Shown one piece after another: positions 6,588 to 64,000 of a DNA stretch of 64,000 nucleotides. This stretch comes from TPA_inf: Saccharomyces. Its lineage: Eukaryota. Within the stretch, counting starts at the first letter, position 1, and every line of letters begins with the position of its first letter. Location of the stretch: positions 416,001 through 480,000 of the forward strand of contig BK006943.2 in assembly GCA_000146045.2 (NCBI GenBank), given 5' to 3'. A model generated the notes under the pieces. It saw nothing but the letters and a program-made list of their open reading frames with translations. It made no database searches and was not told the origin of the DNA. A program made the position numbers and the translations under genes.

Positions 6588-6905
6588 TGTCCTAATGAGG
6601 ATCAACTATAATCTATCGAATAGTATTCATATTACTAATATATTATCATGTACGATGTACCAAGATGGCATGAAGATTGAGAAAACAGTCATCAGATTTA
6701 ATAGATGCTGAAATGCCAGGACTGATAGTGTAACAGAATAATGAATGATATCATATAAATTGGGGAAACAATAATGACAATATTATGTGAAAATATCAAT
6801 TCTCTTTTGTGGATTACAAGATCCCCTGGAGAACTTCTAGTATGTCCTGTATACCCGGTGCTATATCCTTTAATAACCATGGAATCCGCAAATATTTGAT
6901 GTAAA
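6588..6905 (+). mobile_element. Solo delta (Ty1 LTR), diverged, about 30 bp upstream of tRNA-Met
   Basis: Alignable along its length to the delta at 62051-62384 (atcaactat..attatcatgtacg..gatgagaaaacagtcatcagatttaatag..ctgaaa..gataatg.., ..ggagaacttctagtatgtcctgtatacc..). No Ty internal sequence is present. Confidence 0.7.
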
Positions 6906-6936: not shown

Positions 6937-7009
6937 GCTTCAGTAGCTCAGTAGGAAGAGCGTCAGTCTCATAATCTGAAGGTCGAGAGTTCGAACCTCC
7001 CCTGGAGCA
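6937..7009 (+). tRNA. tM(CAU): Elongator tRNA-Met (anticodon CAU), 73 nt, followed by an oligo-T Pol III terminator
   Basis: GCTTCAGTAGCTCAGTAGGAAGAGCGTCAGTCTCATAATCTGAAGGTCGAGAGTTCGAACCTCCCCTGGAGCA. The anticodon loop CTCATAA and GTTCGAA T-loop are present. A T-run follows at 7012-7026. Confidence 0.9.
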
Positions 7010-7137
7010 CATTTTCTTTTTTTGTGAATTAAACCTCGAAGCTCAACATTCATGTTTTGAGATAAAAAAAGGTACTTATTACTTGTGTAAAAGAAAGTTT
7101 ATAATGATGATCTTATTTAAGTTTATAGTAGGACTTT

Positions 7138-8109: not shown

Positions 8110-8431
8110 ATCAAAGTACGTAATTTTCTTAGTTTTGCTGGCTCTATATCTCCTCTCGCTCTATAGATACAGATATATATATATATATATATATATCTAT
8201 GTGTATAAAGACGGCTTTCAGGACAGTACTTGTTTGGATTTTTGATCATCGCGGATTTTCGCAATGCAAGTATAAAGAGAGCATTACCCGCCACACAGTG
8301 ATTCTTCAGCAAGTTGTACCGAAAAGGACCATTTAGGTACGTGGGATCGCAAAGGTTCCCAAACGGTGTGCATCAAGCCGTAGACTTCATGAGTGCTTTC
8401 GGTGCAGCAAAAAGATAAGGACAAAAAATAC

Positions 8432-8515
8432 TGAAGGATGCGAGGTTCGAACTCGCGCGGACAACCGTCCAACAGATCTTAAGTCTGCCGCCTTAGACCA
8501 CTCGGCCAACCCTCC
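8432..8515 (-). tRNA. tL(UAA): tRNA-Leu (anticodon UAA), 84 nt, no intron; the terminator T-run lies downstream on the minus strand
   Basis: Reverse complement is GGAGGGTTGGCCGAGTGGTCTAAGGCGGCAGACTTAAGATCTGTTGGACGGTTGTCCGCGCGAGTTCGAACCTCGCATCCTTCA. Long variable arm, anticodon TAA. A T7 tract (8423-8429 on the minus strand) follows. Confidence 0.9.
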
Positions 8516-9156
8516 ATCTTATTTAAAAATCCTAGGAAATAGATGTTATATAAGTCATACATCATTGAAAACATCAAATACCGTTCCCTGCGTTGTTCTA
8601 CAGAAAAGCGCATTAGAGTAGGTCATACCCTTTAAAAAATGATTTTGTAAATGCCAGAAAGTAAACAAATATGCATTTCGCCTAGCTCCCAATGTAAATA
8701 GCCATAAAAAAGGATAAAATGCCAGATTTAGAGTCAGTTCTCGTTCTTCTTCTTCTCTGTGTTCAATTGTTCAATTGCATTGTTAATCACTGAAATTCTA
8801 TGTTTCAAATTGGAATGGCAGACTGAACTGAGACCTTCCTTACTTTCTCCTCTATCAAACCTAAATATTCAATCATAACCTTATTTTTTCACTTCCTTTT
8901 TCTTACTTTTTTTTTTTTTTTTTTTTTGTATTTTGGAAGGAAAGCAGGGGGGACTTACCATAAGAAAAGCGACTCTAAAAAAGTGTATTTTCTTCCAAAG
9001 TTCAGTAAAGACAGCTGGGAAGTATAGTAACAGAGGAGAGAAAGCATAAGGAGACCTCTTGCTGCAGTTCACAACCAAAAATAGCATATCTTTACTATTG
9101 TCGCTAACCATTGCGAAACGAGCTAAAGCAACAGCAAACGAAATCCCTAGGTCGAA

Positions 9157-19162: not shown

Positions 19163-19926
19163 ATGAATGGAATTCAAGTGGACATCAATCGTTTGAAAAA
19201 GGGCGAAGTCAGTTTAGGTACCTCAATGTATGTATATAAGAATTTTTCCTCCCACTTTATTGTTTCTAAAAGTTCAATGAAGTAAAGTCTCAATTGGCCT
19301 TATTACTAACTAATAGGTATCTTATAATCACCTAATAAAATAGTATGGCCGTGACATTTAAGGATGGTGTGATACTAGGTGCTGATTCACGTACCACCAC
19401 TGGTGCGTACATAGCTAACCGTGTGACAGATAAATTAACGAGAGTACATGACAAAATTTGGTGTTGTAGGTCCGGTTCTGCAGCAGACACGCAGGCGATT
19501 GCCGACATTGTTCAGTACCATTTGGAATTATATACTTCTCAATATGGTACCCCCTCCACAGAGACTGCTGCCTCGGTGTTCAAAGAATTATGTTACGAAA
19601 ATAAAGATAACCTTACTGCTGGTATAATTGTGGCTGGTTATGATGACAAAAACAAAGGGGAAGTATATACTATTCCATTGGGTGGCTCCGTCCATAAGCT
19701 GCCTTATGCGATAGCAGGATCTGGCTCTACTTTCATATATGGGTATTGTGATAAAAACTTTAGAGAAAATATGTCAAAGGAAGAAACCGTAGATTTCATA
19801 AAGCATTCGCTATCGCAAGCCATTAAATGGGACGGATCTTCCGGTGGTGTTATAAGAATGGTTGTTTTGACAGCTGCTGGTGTGGAACGTTTGATATTCT
19901 ACCCTGATGAATATGAACAACTATAA
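19163..19926 (+). CDS. PRE3: 20S proteasome beta1 subunit, 215 aa. It is spliced: exon 1 is 19163-19227, the intron is 19228-19343 and exon 2 is 19344-19926.
   Basis: Exon 1 reads ATGAATGGAATTCAAGTG...ACCTCAAT, followed by the donor GTATGT. The branchpoint TACTAAC is at 19302-19308 and the acceptor is ..AAAATAG|T. The exons join in frame to give MNGIQVDINRLKKGEVSLGTSIMAVTFKDG... (65+583 nt = 216 codons). Confidence 0.9.
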
Positions 19927-20304: not shown

Positions 20305-20425
20305 TATATTTAGGTTCGGAAATCATAAACATTGTTTTTTTGTGTTTTTTATTTTTAAATAAAAAGAATAAATATTTTATATTAAAAAATAAATTTTAAA
20401 GTAAATTAATTATTTAACACGTGAT
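20305..20425 (-). other. CEN10: Point centromere (CEN10), read on the minus strand: CDEI ATCACGTG at 20418-20425, a CDEII ~83 bp and >90% AT at 20335-20417, and CDEIII TGTTTATGATTTCCGAACCTAAA at 20309-20331.
   Basis: CDEI matches RTCACRTG. The adjacent 83-bp element has almost no G/C. CDEIII matches TGTTTWTGnTTTCCGAAA apart from the last A. The spacing is canonical and the location is the YJL/YJR boundary between PRE3 and AVT1. Confidence 0.85.
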
Positions 20426-20801: not shown

Positions 20802-22610
20802 ATGCCTGAGCAAGAACCATTGAGTCCCAATGGCCGTAAGCGCTCTGAGGTTCACTATATCTCAATCCCATTGAACAGAGGTTCCGCATTCTCACCAGAT
20901 GATTCTGTATCACAGTTTCAGTCTGACGGGTTCATGACACGTAGGCAATCCATATTGGACCATCCTGTGGGCTCATTTAAGGGAGTTAATTCTTTAAGTC
21001 GATTTGCGACTTCGTTGAGGAGAGCCAATTCGTTTCGTAATATCGAGCTAAATGCGGATAATGAAAGATCCTTTTTCAAAGAGAGTAACGATGAAACCTA
21101 CGATCCGGATACTTTAGCACCAGCTTTGGACGGTAGAAGATTATCAGTAACTTTAAATAATGCTGGTCGCCCGCGCATTACTAATTTGGCTAACAACGAT
21201 AGAGTTAGTACAGCCAGCATGGCTATTCACGATGATGATTATGGGTCCATCCAAAATTCAACAATTGGGGATTCTGGGTCAATATTACGCCCTACTGCCT
21301 CCTTAACAGAAATGATGAGTGGTGGAGCGGGGAGAAGGTTTACAAATAATGACATGGATTCAATTGTAGTGAAGAGAGTGGAGGGTGTAGATGGTAAGGT
21401 AGTAACTCTTCTTGCTGGTCAGTCGACCGCTCCACAGACCATATTCAACTCAATCAATGTACTGATTGGTATTGGGCTCCTGGCGTTACCTCTTGGTTTG
21501 AAATACGCCGGCTGGGTTATAGGACTTACTATGCTTGCAATCTTCGCCTTAGCGACATTTTGTACTGCTGAACTTTTGTCTAGGTGCCTAGATACAGATC
21601 CAACTTTGATATCTTACGCGGACTTGGGATATGCAGCATTTGGTACAAAAGGGCGCGCACTAATTTCTGCTCTTTTCACACTTGACCTACTGGGTAGTGG
21701 GGTGTCCTTGGTGATTCTCTTCGGAGATTCTTTAAATGCTCTATTTCCTCAATACTCCACCACTTTTTTCAAAATAGTTTCATTTTTTATCGTTACACCC
21801 CCGGTTTTTATACCATTGAGTGTTCTATCTAATATCTCGCTTCTGGGAATCCTTTCAACAACCGGAACTGTGCTAGTCATTTGCTGCTGCGGACTATACA
21901 AGTCGTCTTCTCCAGGTTCATTAGTTAATCCGATGGAAACGAGCATGTGGCCGATAGATCTAAAGCATCTCTGTTTATCTATAGGTTTATTGAGTGCCTG
22001 CTGGGGAGGACATGCGGTTTTTCCCAACTTAAAGACAGATATGAGGCATCCAGATAAATTTAAAGACTGTTTGAAAACTACCTATAAGATAACATCGGTT
22101 ACGGACATAGGTACTGCAGTTATTGGCTTTTTGATGTTTGGAAATCTTGTTAAAGATGAAATTACTAAGAACGTTTTGCTGACGGAGGGATATCCAAAAT
22201 TCGTTTATGGTCTGATTTCAGCGCTTATGACTATCATTCCTATCGCAAAGACCCCATTGAACGCAAGACCTATCGTTTCTGTATTGGACGTTCTGATGAA
22301 TGTGCAACACATAGATGAAGCGGCCAGCGCCATAAAAAGAAGAGCTGCGAAAGGCCTTCAAGTATTCAATAGGATCTTTATTAATGTTGTCTTCGTTTTG
22401 ATAGCTATTAATTTCCCTGAATTTGATAAGATTATCGCATTTCTGGGGGCCGGTTTGTGTTTTACAATTTGCCTAATTTTGCCGTGTTGGTTCTATTTAA
22501 GATTGTGCAAGACAACAATCAAACCATGGGAGAGAGTGGCTTGTCACGTAACCATATGTATTAGTGTCGTGTTGTCCACATTAGGTGTTGGTGCTGCAAT
22601 TATTTCATAA
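20802..22610 (+). CDS. AVT1: Vacuolar neutral amino-acid transporter, 602 aa
   Basis: 602-aa ORF with a hydrophilic N-terminal domain followed by ~11 transmembrane helices. Position matches YJR001W. Confidence 0.85.
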
Positions 22611-38708: not shown

Positions 38709-39861
38709 TTAATTTGAAACTAAGTTCTTGGTTTTTTTAACATTTAAACAAACAATAATAAAATGAATAGACACACAAGAAAAAAACTATCTTGAATGAG
38801 TGCAACCTTTATATATTCTTCCAAACCTACAAAAAAATTGCAGGTCTGCGATCACTGGGTACTATCAAAACACATATTAGCATACGTATGTGTTCGTACG
38901 TGCGGTCCGCAAGGTCTTTGTGACAGCCATGACATGATTGGATTGAATAGTTCACTTCAGCTGTCACCACCAGTTTTAGGCCCTAACACATCAGTCGAGT
39001 TCCACTAGGCTTTGTTAGCCGTAGCTGCGTTGCAACAACTGCGCAAAACGCGCGACTTCCTGTAAATGCCGCAGATCACGTGGTAAAGAAAAGAAACAAC
39101 AGGCCGACCCAGTTTCGTTGTTTCTTTTCATTATTTCTGGATGCTCTTCACAACGTATTTCATGACATACTTATTGAATTAGTGGAAGCCCAAAACATCA
39201 TTACCCTGGAAAACTTAATTGACGTAAATTAACTTCAGTTGTCTTATGTTTTTTGCATCCTTAACTTTAGCCGCGCAGGGATAATCATATATGTCGAAAG
39301 AGCAACTAAACAATACTTAAAAACGTGTTTGAACTTTTACGAAAGGGTAACGACAAATAATCATTCACTGGAAAAACCAATAAACCATAAGTAAATGAAA
39401 AACTGTTTCAACCGATGTTGGTACTTTCCATGTCTTAAAAGAGTACAATTTATAAATTAATGAAAACACAGAAGTATTTAGATCGGCTCAAATGTTTTTG
39501 GACATTAAAAGATCTTGAAACTGAGTAAGATGCTCAGAATACCCGTCAAGATAAGAGTATAATGTAGAGTAATATACCAAGTATTCAGCATATTCTCCTC
39601 TTCTTTTGTATAAATCACGGAAGGGATGATTTATAAGAAAAATGAATACTATTACACTTCATTTACCACCCTCTGATCTAGATTTTCCAACGATATGTAC
39701 GTAGTGGTATAAGGTGAGGGGGTCCACAGATATAACATCGTTTAATTTAGTACTAACAGAGACTTTTGTCACAACTACATATAAGTGTACAAATATAGTA
39801 CAGATATGACACACTTGTAGCGCCAACGCGCATCCTACGGATTGCTGACAGAAAAAAAGGT

Positions 39862-39884
39862 CACGTGACCAGAAAAGTCACGTG
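39862..39884 (+). promoter_or_regulatory. Two Cbf1/Met4-Met28 sites, TCACGTGA at 39861-39868 and CACGTG at 39879-39884, about 360-380 bp upstream of MET3
   Basis: GGTCACGTGACCAGAAAAGTCACGTGTAATT was read directly. CACGTG E-boxes are the hallmark of MET regulon promoters. Confidence 0.7.
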
Positions 39885-40226: not shown

Positions 40227-41774
<1,548 letters not shown>

Positions 41775-55671: not shown

Positions 55672-56759
55672 TTTTTTCGATTTTTTTGGTAAATGTATGC
55701 TATTTCAGTTACTTGTAGACTGTCGTGAAAAGAATAAAGAAAGAATCTTTTACGTCCGTTTTTTTACTTTGCCGAATATGTTTCAGTGACTCACAATTTA
55801 TCCTGACGCCGTCACAAAGGCAGCCATTCCATTGCAATAACGACACTCTGAATATTCACGAACGTTCACCAGACATTTGGAGGCAGCGTTCTAAATGCCG
55901 ATACCCGTTCAGGAGTACAGGTGTCAGTGACAGAAAAATAATGGCACCGTTGACGTCGAAAATACATCCGCGCAAATTTTGACAGGCTATTTTGGCAGCG
56001 CAATCAAAGAATAAACTTGGTATAGTAAGGAAGCCAGTTACTGTACGCATGAATTACGGTAGCTTTTTTTATTTTATTTATTTTTTTTTTTTTTGGACAA
56101 ATAGAAAAATTTTTATTATTATGTAAGATTATTGAAGTAAAAATACAATTGGACGAATCTAGTTAGATTGCCAAGATGTGTTAAAAGGCAAGATTAACTT
56201 ATGAACATGATCTACAACGTCCTGGTTTTTAAATTCGAGTAAATACGCCTCCTTTTTATCTGTGAATGACAGTCCTGTTCTCCCAAGTCTTTTTACATCA
56301 TGGAGACGGGAGTTATACTCTCTCGGGTACAAGGTTCCTTCAGCATCAGAACAGATCACAAACTTTATCGCAACAACAATTCCTTTATATTCCTGGGAAA
56401 ATATGTCGGTATAGCCTACTCGAGACGGCTTCCAAACATCAGCTTTCGTTTTAACATGTTGCTGTTGGAATAAAAATCCACTATCGTCTATCAACTAATA
56501 GTTATATTATCAATATATTATCATATACGGTGTTAAGATGATGACATAAGTTATGAGAAGCTGTCATCGAAGTTAGAGGAAGCTGAAACGCAAGGATTGA
56601 TAATGTAATAGGATCAATGAATATAAACATATAAAACGGAATGAGGAATAATCGTAATATTAGTATGTAGAAATATAGATTCCATTTTGAGGATTCCTAT
56701 ATCCTCGAGGAGAACTTCTAGTATATTCTGTATACCTAATATTATAGCCTTTATCAACA

Positions 56760-58082
56760 ATGGAATCCCAACAATTATCTCAACATTCACATATTTCTCA
56801 TGGTAGCGCCTGTGCTTCGGTTACTTCTAAGGAAGTCCACACAAATCAAGATCCGTTAGACGTTTCAGCTTCCAAAACAGAAGAATGTGAGAAGGCTTCC
56901 ACTAAGGCTAACTCTCAACAGACAACAACACCTGCTTCATCAGCTGTTCCAGAGAACCCCCATCATGCCTCTCCTCAACCTGCTTCAGTACCACCTCCAC
57001 AGAATGGGCCGTACCCACAGCAGTGCATGATGACCCAAAACCAAGCCAATCCATCTGGTTGGTCATTTTACGGACACCCATCTATGATTCCGTATACACC
57101 TTATCAAATGTCGCCTATGTACTTTCCACCTGGGCCACAATCACAGTTTCCGCAGTATCCATCATCAGTTGGAACGCCTCTGAGCACTCCATCACCTGAG
57201 TCAGGTAATACATTTACTGATTCATCCTCAGCGGACTCTGATATGACATCCACTAAAAAATATGTCAGACCACCACCAATGTTAACCTCACCTAATGACT
57301 TTCCAAATTGGGTTAAAACATACATCAAATTTTTACAAAACTCGAATCTCGGTGGTATTATTCCGACAGTAAACGGAAAACCCGTACGTCAGATCACTGA
57401 TGATGAACTCACCTTCTTGTATAACACTTTTCAAATATTTGCTCCCTCTCAATTCCTACCTACCTGGGTCAAAGACATCCTATCCGTTGATTATACGGAT
57501 ATCATGAAAATTCTTTCCAAAAGTATTGAAAAAATGCAATCTGATACCCAAGAGGCAAACGACATTGTGACCCTGGCAAATTTGCAATATAATGGCAGTA
57601 CACCTGCAGATGCATTTGAAACAAAAGTCACAAACATTATCGACAGACTGAACAATAATGGCATTCATATCAATAACAAGGTCGCATGCCAATTAATTAT
57701 GAGAGGTCTATCTGGCGAATATAAATTTTTACGCTACACACGTCATCGACATCTAAATATGACAGTCGCTGAACTGTTCTTAGATATCCATGCTATTTAT
57801 GAAGAACAACAGGGATCGAGAAACAGCAAACCTAATTACAGGAGAAATCTGAGTGATGAGAAGAATGATTCTCGCAGCTATACGAATACAACCAAACCCA
57901 AAGTTATAGCTCGGAATCCTCAAAAAACAAATAATTCGAAATCGAAAACAGCCAGGGCTCACAATGTATCCACATCTAATAACTCTCCCAGCACGGACAA
58001 CGATTCCATCAGTAAATCAACTACTGAACCGATTCAATTGAACAATAAGCACGACCTTCACCTTAGGCCAGGAACTTACTGA
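56760..58082 (+). CDS. TYA: Ty1 Gag (TYA), 440 aa; the ATG lies inside the 5' LTR
   Basis: [32 protein letters not shown]... is the canonical Ty1 Gag. Confidence 0.95.
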
Positions 58083-61000
58083 ATCTACGGTAAATCACAC
58101 TAATCATTCTGATGATGAACTCCCTGGACACCTCCTTCTCGATTCAGGAGCATCACGAACCCTTATAAGATCTGCTCATCACATACACTCAGCATCATCT
58201 AATCCTGACATAAACGTAGTTGATGCTCAAAAAAGAAATATACCAATTAACGCTATTGGTGACCTACAATTTCACTTCCAGGACAACACCAAAACATCAA
58301 TAAAGGTATTGCACACTCCTAACATAGCCTATGACTTACTCAGTTTGAATGAATTGGCTGCAGTAGATATCACAGCATGCTTTACCAAAAACGTCTTAGA
58401 ACGATCTGACGGCACTGTACTTGCACCTATCGTACAATATGGAGACTTTTACTGGGTATCTAAAAGGTACTTGCTTCCATCAAATATCTCCGTACCCACC
58501 ATCAATAATGTCCATACAAGTGAAAGTACACGCAAATATCCTTATCCTTTCATTCATCGAATGCTTGCGCATGCCAATGCACAGACAATTCGATACTCAC
58601 TTAAAAATAACACCATCACGTATTTTAACGAATCAGATGTCGACTGGTCTAGTGCTATTGACTATCAATGTCCTGATTGTTTAATCGGCAAAAGCACCAA
58701 ACACAGACATATCAAAGGTTCACGACTAAAATACCAAAATTCATACGAACCCTTTCAATACCTACATACTGACATATTTGGTCCAGTTCACAACCTACCA
58801 AAAAGTGCACCATCCTATTTCATCTCATTTACTGATGAGACAACAAAATTCCGTTGGGTTTATCCATTACACGACCGTCGCGAGGACTCTATCCTCGATG
58901 TTTTTACTACGATACTAGCTTTTATTAAGAACCAGTTTCAGGCCAGTGTCTTGGTTATACAAATGGACCGTGGTTCTGAGTATACTAACAGAACTCTCCA
59001 TAAATTCCTTGAAAAAAATGGTATAACTCCATGCTATACAACCACAGCGGATTCCCGAGCACATGGAGTCGCTGAACGGCTCAACCGTACCTTATTAGAT
59101 GACTGCCGTACTCAACTGCAATGTAGTGGTTTACCGAACCATTTATGGTTCTCTGCAATCGAATTTTCTACTATTGTGAGAAATTCACTAGCTTCACCTA
59201 AAAGCAAAAAATCTGCAAGACAACATGCTGGCTTGGCAGGACTTGATATCAGTACTTTGTTACCTTTCGGTCAACCTGTTATCGTCAATGATCACAACCC
59301 TAACTCCAAAATACATCCTCGTGGCATCCCAGGTTACGCTCTACATCCGTCTCGAAACTCTTATGGATATATCATCTATCTTCCATCCTTAAAGAAGACA
59401 GTAGATACAACTAACTATGTTATTCTTCAGGGCAAGGAATCCAGATTAGATCAATTCAATTACGACGCACTCACTTTCGATGAAGACTTAAACCGTTTAA
59501 CTGCTTCATATCAATCGTTCATTGCGTCAAATGAGATCCAAGAATCCAATGATCTTAACATAGAATCTGACCATGACTTCCAATCTGACATTGAACTACA
59601 TCCTGAGCAACCGAGAAATGTCCTTTCAAAAGCTGTGAGTCCAACCGATTCCACACCTCCGTCAACTCATACTGAAGATTCGAAACGTGTTTCTAAAACC
59701 AATATTCGCGCACCCAGAGAAGTTGACCCCAACATATCTGAATCTAATATTCTTCCATCAAAGAAGAGATCTAGCACCCCCCAAATTTCCAATATCGAGA
59801 GTACCGGTTCGGGTGGTATGCATAAATTAAATGTTCCTTTACTTGCTCCCATGTCCCAATCTAACACACATGAGTCGTCGCACGCCAGTAAATCTAAAGA
59901 TTTCAGACACTCAGACTCGTACAGTGAAAATGAGACTAATCATACAAACGTACCAATATCCAGTACGGGTGGTACCAACAACAAAACTGTTCCGCAGATA
60001 AGTGACCAAGAGACTGAGAAAAGGATTATACACCGTTCACCTTCAATCGATGCTTCTCCACCGGAAAATAATTCATCGCACAATATTGTTCCTATCAAAA
60101 CGCCAACTACTGTTTCTGAACAGAATACCGAGGAATCTATCATCGCTGATCTCCCACTCCCTGATCTACCTCCAGAATCTCCTACCGAATTCCCTGACCC
60201 ATTTAAAGAACTCCCACCGATAAATTCTCATCAAACTAATTCCAGTTTGGGTGGTATTGGTGACTCTAATGCCTATACTACTATCAACAGTAAGAAAAGA
60301 TCATTAGAAGATAATGAAACTGAAATTAAGGTATCACGAGACACATGGAATACTAAGAATATGCGTAGTTTAGAACCTCCGAGATCGAAGAAACGAATTC
60401 ACCTGATTGCAGCTGTAAAAGCAGTAAAATCAATCAAACCAATACGGACAACCTTACGATACGATGAGGCAATCACCTATAATAAAGATATTAAAGAAAA
60501 AGAAAAATATATCGAGGCATACCACAAAGAAGTCAATCAACTGTTGAAGATGAAAACTTGGGACACTGACGAATATTATGACAGAAAAGAAATAGACCCT
60601 AAAAGAGTAATAAACTCAATGTTTATCTTCAACAAGAAACGTGACGGTACTCATAAAGCTAGATTTGTTGCAAGAGGTGACATTCAGCATCCTGATACGT
60701 ACGATACAGGTATGCAATCCAACACTGTACATCATTATGCGTTGATGACATCCCTGTCACTTGCATTAGACAATAACTACTATATTACACAATTAGACAT
60801 ATCTTCGGCATATTTGTATGCAGACATCAAAGAAGAATTATACATAAGACCTCCACCACATTTAGGAATGAATGATAAGTTGATACGTTTGAAGAAATCA
60901 CATTATGGATTGAAACAAAGTGGAGCGAACTGGTACGAAACTATCAAATCATACCTGATAAAACAGTGTGGTATGGAAGAAGTTCGTGGATGGTCATGCG

Positions 61001-62028
61001 TATTTAAGAATAGTCAAGTAACAATTTGCTTATTCGTTGATGATATGATATTGTTCAGCAAAGACTTAAATGCAAATAAGAAAATCATAACAACACTCAA
61101 GAAACAATACGATACAAAGATAATAAATCTGGGTGAAAGTGATAACGAAATTCAGTACGACATACTTGGCTTAGAAATCAAATATCAAAGAGGTAAATAC
61201 ATGAAATTAGGTATGGAAAACTCATTAACTGAGAAAATACCCAAATTAAACGTACCTTTGAATCCAAAAGGAAGAAAACTTAGCGCTCCAGGTCAACCAG
61301 GTCTTTATATAGACCAGGATGAACTAGAAATAGATGAAGATGAATACAAAGAGAAGGTACATGAAATGCAAAAGTTGATTGGTCTAGCTTCATATGTTGG
61401 ATATAAATTTAGATTTGACTTACTATACTACATCAACACACTTGCTCAACATATACTATTCCCCTCTAGGCAAGTTTTAGACATGACATATGAGTTAATA
61501 CAATTCATGTGGGACACTAGAGATAAACAACTGATATGGCACAAAAACAAACCTACCGAGCCAGATAATAAACTAGTCGCAATAAGCGATGCTTCATATG
61601 GTAACCAACCATATTACAAGTCACAAATTGGTAACATTTTCCTACTCAACGGAAAAGTGATTGGAGGAAAGTCGACAAAGGCTTCATTAACATGTACTTC
61701 AACTACGGAAGCAGAAATACACGCGATAAGTGAATCTGTCCCATTATTAAATAATCTAAGTTACCTGATACAAGAACTTAACAAGAAACCAATTATTAAA
61801 GGCTTACTTACTGATAGTAGATCAACGATCAGTATAATTAAGTCTACAAATGAAGAGAAATTTAGAAACAGATTTTTTGGCACAAAGGCAATGAGACTTA
61901 GAGATGAAGTATCAGGTAATAATTTATACGTATACTACATCGAGACCAAGAAGAACATTGCTGATGTGATGACAAAACCTCTTCCGATAAAAACATTTAA
62001 ACTATTAACTAACAAATGGATTCATTAG
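58066..62028 (+). CDS. TYB: Ty1 Pol (TYB: protease, integrase, reverse transcriptase, RNase H). It is expressed as a Gag-Pol fusion by +1 ribosomal frameshifting at CTTAGGC (58062-58068).
   Basis: The +1 frame is open from the frameshift heptamer to 62028. It contains the protease DSGAS, the integrase HHCC/DDE region, and RT YVDDM-like FVDDMIL. Confidence 0.9.
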
Positions 62029-62343
62029 ATCTATTACATTATGGGTGGTATGTTGGAATAGAAATCAACTATCATCTACTAACTAGTATTTACATTACTA
62101 GTATATTATCATATACGGTGTTAGAAGATGACGCAAATGATGAGAAATAGTCATCTAAATTAGTGGAAGCTGAAACGCAAGGATTGATAATGTAATAGGA
62201 TCAATGAATATAAACATATAAAATGATGATAATAATATTTATAGAATTGTGTAGAATTGCAGATTCCCTTTTATGGATTCCTAAATCCTTGAGGAGAACT
62301 TCTAGTATATTCTGTATACCTAATATTATAGCCTTTATCAACA

Positions 62344-63666
62344 ATGGAATCCCAACAATTATCTCAACATTCACATATTTCTCATGGTAGCGCCTGTGCT
62401 TCGGTTACTTCTAAGGAAGTCCACACAAATCAAGATCCGTTAGACGTTTCAGCTTCCAAAACAGAAGAATGTGAGAAGGCTTCCACTAAGGCTAACTCTC
62501 AACAGACAACAACACCTGCTTCATCAGCTGTTCCAGAGAACCCCCATCATGCCTCTCCTCAAACTGCTCAGTCACATTCACCACAGAATGGGCCGTACCC
62601 ACAGCAGTGCATGATGACCCAAAACCAAGCCAATCCATCTGGTTGGTCATTTTACGGACACCCATCTATGATTCCGTATACACCTTATCAAATGTCGCCT
62701 ATGTACTTTCCACCTGGGCCACAATCACAGTTTCCGCAGTATCCATCATCAGTTGGAACGCCTCTGAGCACTCCATCACCTGAGTCAGGTAATACATTTA
62801 CTGATTCATCCTCAGCGGACTCTGATATGACATCCACTAAAAAATATGTCAGACCACCACCAATGTTAACCTCACCTAATGACTTTCCAAATTGGGTTAA
62901 AACATACATCAAATTTTTACAAAACTCGAATCTCGGTGGTATTATTCCGACAGTAAACGGAAAACCCGTACGTCAGATCACTGATGATGAACTCACCTTC
63001 TTGTATAACACTTTTCAAATATTTGCTCCCTCTCAATTCCTACCTACCTGGGTCAAAGACATCCTATCCGTTGATTATACGGATATCATGAAAATTCTTT
63101 CCAAAAGTATTGAAAAAATGCAATCTGATACCCAAGAGGCAAACGACATTGTGACCCTGGCAAATTTGCAATATAATGGCAGTACACCTGCAGATGCATT
63201 TGAAACAAAAGTCACAAACATTATCGACAGACTGAACAATAATGGCATTCATATCAATAACAAGGTCGCATGCCAATTAATTATGAGAGGTCTATCTGGC
63301 GAATATAAATTTTTACGCTACACACGTCATCGACATCTAAATATGACAGTCGCTGAACTGTTCTTAGATATCCATGCTATTTATGAAGAACAACAGGGAT
63401 CGAGAAACAGTAAACCTAATTACAGGAGAAATCCGAGTGATGAGAAGAATGATTCTCGCAGCTATACGAATACAACCAAACCCAAAGTTATAGCTCGGAA
63501 TCCTCAAAAAACAAATAATTCGAAATCGAAAACAGCCAGGGCTCACAATGTATCCACATCTAATAACTCTCCCAGCACGGACAACGATTCCATCAGTAAA
63601 TCAACTACTGAACCGATTCAATTGAACAATAAGCACGACCTTCATCTTAGGCCAGAAACTTACTGA
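62344..63666 (+). CDS. TYA: Ty1 Gag (TYA) of copy 2, 440 aa
   Basis: Nearly identical to the copy 1 Gag, except for a short variant patch ([10 protein letters not shown] instead of [10 protein letters not shown]) and two point substitutions. Confidence 0.95.
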
Positions 63667-64000
63667 ATCTACAGTAAATCATACTAATCATTCTGATGAT
63701 GAACTCCCTGGACACCTCCTTCTCGATTCAGGAGCATCACGAACCCTTATAAGATCTGCTCATCACATACACTCAGCATCATCTAATCCTGACATAAACG
63801 TAGTTGATGCTCAAAAAAGAAATATACCAATTAACGCTATTGGTGACCTACAATTTCACTTCCAGGACAACACCAAAACATCAATAAAGGTATTGCACAC
63901 TCCTAACATAGCCTATGACTTACTCAGTTTGAATGAATTGGCTGCAGTAGATATCACAGCATGCTTTACCAAAAACGTCTTAGAACGGTCTGACGGCACT
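63650..64000 (+). CDS. TYB: Ty1 Pol (TYB) of copy 2, N-terminal part only; the frameshift site CTTAGGC is at 63646-63652
   Basis: The same heptamer is present and the +1 frame stays open to the window end (..[14 protein letters not shown]..). Confidence 0.85.

Follow-up and report, generated by a model that had tools for sequence, protein, structure and literature searches.

The element at positions 20306-20425 of the 64-kb stretch of DNA analysed here (hereafter, the window) is, judged by its sequence, almost certainly CEN10, which is the centromere of chromosome X in Saccharomyces cerevisiae and belongs to the genetically defined point centromeres. A single copy of the published Scer_CEN10 sequence (Table S2 of Gordon et al. 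2011) is present in the window, on the minus strand at 20306-20425, and is identical at 120 of 120 positions, so that the window element carries no sequence difference from S. cerevisiae CEN10; the flanking genes, PRE3 and AVT1, are also the same. This alignment had been proposed in the initial annotation as a check on its claim of a complete CDEI-CDEII-CDEIII point centromere on the minus strand between PRE3 and AVT1, and the claim is borne out, with all elements present in the predicted order and both flanking genes matched. The table entry for Scer_CEN10 is Chr10 complement(436299..436418), 120 nt (Gordon, Byrne and Wolfe 2011, PMC3141009 Table S2). These published coordinates stem from an older release. 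In the current reference, CEN10 presumably corresponds to chrX:436307-436425, equivalent to 20307-20425 of the window, and the window itself would then span chrX:416001-480000. Centromere function is assigned to the window element because its sequence is that of a locus which others have characterised, every S. cerevisiae centromere having been functionally characterised according to Gordon et al. (PMC3141009); the sequence, position, evolutionary history and binding proteins of CEN10 are all published, and nothing in them is new. As the element that lets chromosome X segregate, CEN10 anchors the window, and its value to a genome scan is that of a positive control, wherein a reading of the letters alone correctly found a functional element of 120 bp.

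The genomic setting agrees with this assignment. The ORF to the left (19345-19926, plus strand) represents exon 2 of a gene for a proteasome beta subunit, matching the yeast PRE3 chains in the PDB over all 193 residues (433 bits), and the ORF to the right (20802-22610, plus strand) encodes a 602-aa amino-acid transporter that is ~100% identical to S. cerevisiae Avt1p, which other sources label YJR001W. By yeast naming convention, the first ORF on the right arm of chromosome X, counted from the centromere, is called YJR001W, and the element is located between YJL001W (PRE3) and YJR001W (AVT1), precisely where CEN10 is expected by position. Farther out lie a ribophorin I gene on the left, which we take to be OST1, and an Mpp10-family gene on the right. 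The gap between PRE3 and AVT1 measures 875 bp, and the element occupies its centre almost exactly, about 380 bp from each gene. No ORF of at least 20 aa overlaps the element, and Rfam returned no match to it at either gathering or permissive thresholds.

Three elements make up the locus: CDEI, an E-box-type palindromic octamer that serves as the binding site of a Cbf1 dimer; CDEII, the DNA that is wrapped by a single Cse4 (CENP-A) nucleosome and touched by Mif2; and CDEIII, the binding site of the CBF3 complex. Their coordinates in the window, together with those of the principal contact sites, are as follows.

20418..20425, minus strand: CDEI, ATCACGTG, from direct reading of the sequence.
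20332..20417, minus strand: CDEII, 86 bp, 94.2% A+T (81/86), lying between CDEI and CDEIII.
20307..20331, minus strand: CDEIII, TGTTTATGATTTCCGAACCTAAATA, conventional 25 bp, the single match of the consensus scan.
20329..20331, minus strand: TGT half-site of the CDEIII pseudo-palindrome, CDEIII positions 1-3, spaced as in CEN3.
20324, minus strand: central invariant G, CDEIII position 8, from the comparison of 16 centromeres.
20317..20319, minus strand: CCG half-site, CDEIII positions 13-15, with its role taken from PMC6077249 and PMC13538507.
20277..20435, no strand: approximate, inferred footprint of the whole kinetochore, transferred from the ~160-bp Fiber-seq protection in PMC13538507.

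The three elements are contiguous and share one orientation, running from 20425 to 20307 of the window for a total of 119-120 bp; under the 26-bp definition, CDEIII ends at 20306 and reads TGTTTATGATTTCCGAACCTAAATAT. The 23-nt CDEIII string given in the initial annotation is indeed present at 20331..20309, and its estimate of ~94% A+T for CDEII agrees with the measured value. Its length of 83 bp for CDEII is in error, since the boundaries that it had itself drawn (20417..20332) enclose 86 bp, and of the span that it had set for the locus, 20305-20425, the end is correct and the start falls 1-2 bp outside the element. [quoted passage not shown] The footprint listed above comprises the centromere, ~30 bp past CDEIII (Ndc10 and a second CBF3) and ~10 bp past CDEI, and takes its size from the roughly 160 bp that Fiber-seq found protected in vivo at all 16 centromeres (PMC13538507).

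When set beside the 16 S. cerevisiae centromere sequences of Gordon et al. 2011 Table S2 (PMC3141009), CEN10 is an ordinary member of the set by each measure, and its CDEI, CDEII and CDEIII each conform to what defines a point centromere in the Saccharomycetaceae. [quoted passage not shown] The CDEI of S. cerevisiae is RTCACRTG, around an invariant family core of CA..TG (PMC3141009), and ATCACGTG is its commonest variant, found in 6 of the 16. In CDEIII, G2, G8 and CCGAA at positions 13-17 are invariant in all 16, and CEN10 has every one of them; across more than 100 point centromeres, CCGAA alone is invariant (PMC3141009). The C that follows CCGAA had been flagged as a departure from the consensus, a reading that does not hold: position 18 is variable (A in 9, C in 5 and G in 2 of the 16 centromeres), and CEN10 shares its C with CEN8, 11, 12 and 13.

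Closer comparisons can be drawn with individual centromeres. CEN10 and CEN12 are WGD sister centromeres, both derived from ancestral centromere 5 (Gordon et al. 2011, PMC3141009), and have in common the CDEI ATCACGTG and the C after CCGAA. Their CDEII elements are near-equal in length and composition (87 bp and 94.3% A+T in CEN12 vs 86 bp and 94.2% in CEN10), although the sequences are unrelated, and their CDEIII elements differ outside the invariant positions (e.g., TATCCGAA against TTTCCGAA). CEN3, which serves as the model centromere for structural and biochemical work, is identical to CEN10 in architecture and in the CDEIII spacing TGT-4 nt-G-4 nt-CCG (PMC6077249) but differs in its CDEI (GTCACATG), in its 84-bp CDEII and in having A after CCGAA. 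The non-WGD centromeres of Zygosaccharomyces, Kluyveromyces and Eremothecium are built from the same three elements with the invariant CCGAA, whereas their CDEII measures ~134-165 bp vs ~85 bp. Mif2 also leaves its footprint on different sides: in CEN3 it is found on that side of the dyad where CDEIII lies, and in CEN10 it is found toward CDEI (PMC5710141). It might be proposed that the C at position 18 and the layout of T- and A-runs make CEN10 a functionally distinct subclass of centromere, which, if true, could explain the two orientations of the Mif2 footprint. This proposal is quite unlikely to be correct and finds little support, given that the C at position 18 is both common (5/16) and scattered over all ancestral centromere groups rather than specific to the lineage of CEN10 and CEN12.

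The conservation of the locus was followed in the AVT1 loci of S. arboricola, S. uvarum (two lineages) and S. eubayanus, as well as in those of more distant yeasts. In the PRE3-AVT1 spacer of all three Saccharomyces relatives, CDEI, CDEII and CDEIII are found at the same position and in the same orientation. Scattered single A/T columns aside, the only blocks that are invariant across the four Saccharomyces species are TCACGTG and TG..T.TG...TCCGAA, and the rest of the spacer aligns poorly. Across S. cerevisiae, S. arboricola, S. uvarum and S. eubayanus, CDEII holds to a length of 83-86 bp and an A+T content of 85-94%, with no conservation of its sequence. The conservation of CEN10 thus matches the constraints on such an element: the CDEI and the CDEIII core are fixed, and CDEII is held only in length and composition. 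Bensasson and colleagues have reportedly described just such rapid evolution of CDEII, with constraint on length and composition only.

The same pattern is repeated within species. In six other S. cerevisiae strains, all with an identical Avt1p, the CDEI and the CDEIII core are unchanged, and CDEII is 84-85 bp long with several substitutions and small indels relative to the window; no polymorphism was found in the CDEI or the CDEIII core among the strains compared. Given these differences in CDEII, the window most likely derives from the reference strain or one nearly identical to it. Over the seven S. cerevisiae sequences together, the mean pairwise difference amounts to 0% in CDEI, 0.1-0.5% in coding sequence, 0.7-1.7% in flanking intergenic DNA and 6.3% in CDEII, the most polymorphic part of the locus. 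The two S. uvarum lineages (L008 and L014, both from assemblies that bear this species label) are a striking within-species case of fast centromere turnover, as their CDEII differs by 31%, compared with 17-20% for flanking intergenic DNA and 4-5% for coding sequence, and their CDEI is identical. One of the S. uvarum copies (L014:2501-2619) is identical at 119 of 119 positions to a published S. bayanus centromere. Although this copy is the positional orthologue of CEN10, the sequence that it matches is labelled 'Sbay_CEN12', not 'Sbay_CEN10' (Gordon Tables S2, S5); the labels CEN10 and CEN12 that Gordon et al. give to the two S. bayanus descendants of ancestral centromere 5 appear either to have been interchanged with respect to their S. 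cerevisiae orthologues or to obey a different numbering.

The events that the element would support can be outlined by applying the S. cerevisiae point-centromere literature to the window sequence. CDEIII would be recognised by CBF3 (a Cep3 dimer, Ctf13-Skp1 and Ndc10), with one Cep3 zinc cluster expected to read the CCG at 20319-20317, the TGT at 20331-20329 serving as the other half-site, and Ctf13 expected to contact the central conserved G at 20324; Ndc10 would clamp CDEIII and the DNA beyond it. The chaperone Scm3, recruited by Ndc10 as Scm3-Cse4-H4, would then deposit one Cse4 (CENP-A) nucleosome on the stiff, AT-rich 86-bp CDEII. On the other side, a Cbf1 dimer would bind the CDEI palindrome ATCACGTG and provide a link to CCAN, and Mif2/CENP-C and CCAN would bind both the Cse4 nucleosome and AT-rich DNA. 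From general knowledge, the kinetochore assembled on CEN10 would capture a single microtubule and thereby segregate chromosome X. Published experiments bear on several of these steps. The DNA contacts of CBF3, Cbf1 and Ndc10 have been described (PMC6077249; PMC13538507), and the essentiality of the CCG has been summarised (PMC6077249). By ChIP-seq, signal for Cse4, Mif2, Ndc10 and Ndc80 was obtained at centromeres, CEN10 among them (PMC3547844), and CEN10 DNA itself has been used to reconstitute Cse4 nucleosomes in vitro, on which a Mif2 dimer leaves a footprint in the AT-rich CDEII toward CDEI (PMC5710141).

Among the readings that would deny the element a centromeric role, a Cbf1-dependent promoter element of AVT1 fares best, and even so it is extremely improbable. 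On this reading, the CACGTG, which precedes the start codon of AVT1 by 376 bp, would adjoin a nucleosome-depleted, AT-rich region; Cbf1 does act as a transcription factor too, and GTCACGTG boxes precede an ATP-sulfurylase gene in the same window. A promoter element nevertheless leaves unexplained the full CDEIII 86 bp away, with G2, G8 and CCGAA in register, the conservation of CDEII in length without conservation in sequence, and the identity with CEN10. The two roles are compatible, in that Cbf1 bound at CDEI might also influence neighbouring transcription. At the ATP-sulfurylase gene, GTCACGTG, a CDEI-type Cbf1 box, is found at 39860-39869 (a palindromic overlap, on both strands) and at 39877-39884, ~360 bp upstream of the ORF at 40239-41774 (Pfam PF01747, PUA_2), which is presumably MET3. 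These boxes illustrate that CDEI by itself is a mark not only of centromeres but also of promoter sites for Cbf1.

Another reading holds that the element is ordinary AT-rich intergenic DNA in which a CACGTG box and a TTCCGAA happen to stand ~100 bp apart. Taken one at a time, the parts offer this reading some comfort, as CDEI-like octamers alone occur at chance frequency (11 in the window vs 7.5 expected, which is not significant) and CCGAA is present 66 times in the window. In combination, they do not. A scan with the 26-nt consensus of CDEIII that tolerated as many as 3 mismatches gave 1 match vs 0.00 expected (100 shuffles), and TCACGTG followed after 84-104 bp by TTCCGAA has 1 match vs 0.02 expected. 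With the family-wide tripartite definition (a CDEI core, 76-90 bp at no less than 76% A+T, and CCGAA in register), CEN10 is the sole match in the 64 kb when both strands are scanned, and with the published CDEI core no match arose in 300 simulated 64-kb sequences. The loosest core, CANNTG, gave matches in 5 of 500 simulated sequences, and this 1% may be counted in favour of chance. The rescan with CANNTG was made because the CDEI consensus printed in the main text of PMC3141009, NNCAVBTG, excludes that paper's own CACATG and CATGTG centromeres; the printed form is probably a typographical inversion, and NNCABVTG fits all of the sequences listed. Further against chance, CDEII is the most AT-rich 86-mer of the whole 64 kb (the window having an overall G+C content of 38%), and three further Saccharomyces species keep the tripartite element in this location, amid intergenic DNA that is otherwise unalignable. 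Chance juxtaposition is refuted by the exact match to the published CEN10 and by synteny, and its probability is next to nil.

It is likewise scarcely conceivable that the element is a former centromere now decayed, or a centromere-like region, and that the active centromere lies at another site. Regions with AT-rich stretches of 90 bp do exist in this genome, and these centromere-like regions (CLRs; ~90 bp, AT-rich) are bound by kinetochore proteins only on overproduction of Cse4 (PMC3547844); ancestral centromere positions can also fall empty, as in the PRE3-AVT1 spacer of Nakaseomyces bracarensis. However, CLRs have no CDEI or CDEIII consensus (PMC3547844), and both are intact here at every invariant position, the CDEI and the CDEIII core do not vary among the strains compared, and wild-type ChIP-seq puts kinetochore proteins at CEN10 (PMC3547844). 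The remaining suggestion, namely that the AT-rich DNA is an origin of replication (ARS) or some other structural element, has an equally negligible probability, for although the region has only 11-13% G+C in 100-bp windows, as is typical of ARS elements too, the perfect 11-bp consensus WTTTAYRTTTW occurs only at 1383, 26718 and 29362, none of them within 6 kb of the element and with no excess over chance, and the CDEI, the CDEIII and their conservation would be left unaccounted for.

The identification as CEN10 can also be set within the history of its ancestral locus. The non-WGD yeast Zygotorulaspora mrakii has a candidate for a point centromere at L012:601-768 (Logan assembly SRR31967946), with a CDEI TGCATGTG, a 135-bp CDEII at 86% A+T and a CDEIII ending in ...GTTCCGAAC; the length of its CDEII matches the 168-bp (total) class of Z. 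rouxii. The candidate is flanked by a dynamin-family gene and a fasciclin-domain gene and lies one gene away from homologues of AVT1, MPP10 and the NOC3 family. We take the dynamin and fasciclin genes to be homologues of those that flank CEN12 in S. cerevisiae, and this single candidate fits a single ancestral locus for CEN10 and CEN12.

The ancestral PRE3-AVT1 centromere position is not universally occupied. Centromeres were searched for and found to be absent at the AVT1 loci of N. bracarensis, Kazachstania africana and Eremothecium gossypii, and these loci contribute nothing to the comparative case for CEN10. Of the descendants of ancestral centromere 5, one is present in C. glabrata and none in A. 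gossypii (Gordon et al. 2011, PMC3141009), and the absences at the AVT1 loci of the C. glabrata clade and A. gossypii are accounted for by this published loss. In N. bracarensis (L011:3563-4000), PRE3 and AVT1 have remained neighbours, with a spacer of 438 bp that contains no CDEI-CDEII-CDEIII, and the centromere looks to have been lost in place, with no rearrangement of the flanking genes. Such a loss is consistent with the single descendant of ancestral centromere 5 in C. glabrata. The N. bracarensis spacer does contain a TTTCCGAT motif, which might be either a remnant or a chance occurrence.

Lastly, the suggestion in the initial annotation that the centromere explains a local density of tRNA genes and LTRs is not supported by the content of the window, in which the relevant features are the following.

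510-1024: delta fragments.
6601-6887: solo delta LTR that has diverged from the Ty1 LTR (73% identity) and lies 50 bp upstream of tRNA-Met.
6937-7010: tRNA-Met, found by ARAGORN and Rfam, 13.3 kb from the centromere.
8431-8516: tRNA-Leu(UAA), found by ARAGORN and Rfam, 11.8 kb from the centromere.
56463 and 62051 (LTR starts): full-length Ty1, with a TYA ORF at 56760-58082 and a pol ORF at 58309-62028.
62344-63666: second TYA ORF, directly after the full-length Ty1.

The count of tRNA genes in the 64 kb is two by ARAGORN and by Rfam alike, and none was added when positions 10000-32000 were scanned with Rfam at a permissive threshold. With ~275 nuclear tRNA genes in a genome of ~12 Mb, roughly 1.5 would be expected per 64 kb, and the window is therefore not enriched for tRNA genes. 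Distances from the centromere are 13.4 kb for the nearest LTR and 36 kb for the Ty1 pair. The placement of Ty1 LTRs follows RNA polymerase III genes, not centromeres, and the solo delta and the delta fragments are typical scars of Ty1 insertion at RNA polymerase III genes, unrelated to the centromere. No tRNA gene was detected next to the Ty1 pair inside the window. The stretch at 56463-64000 looks like a tandem pair of Ty1 elements that share their middle LTR and run past the end of the window.
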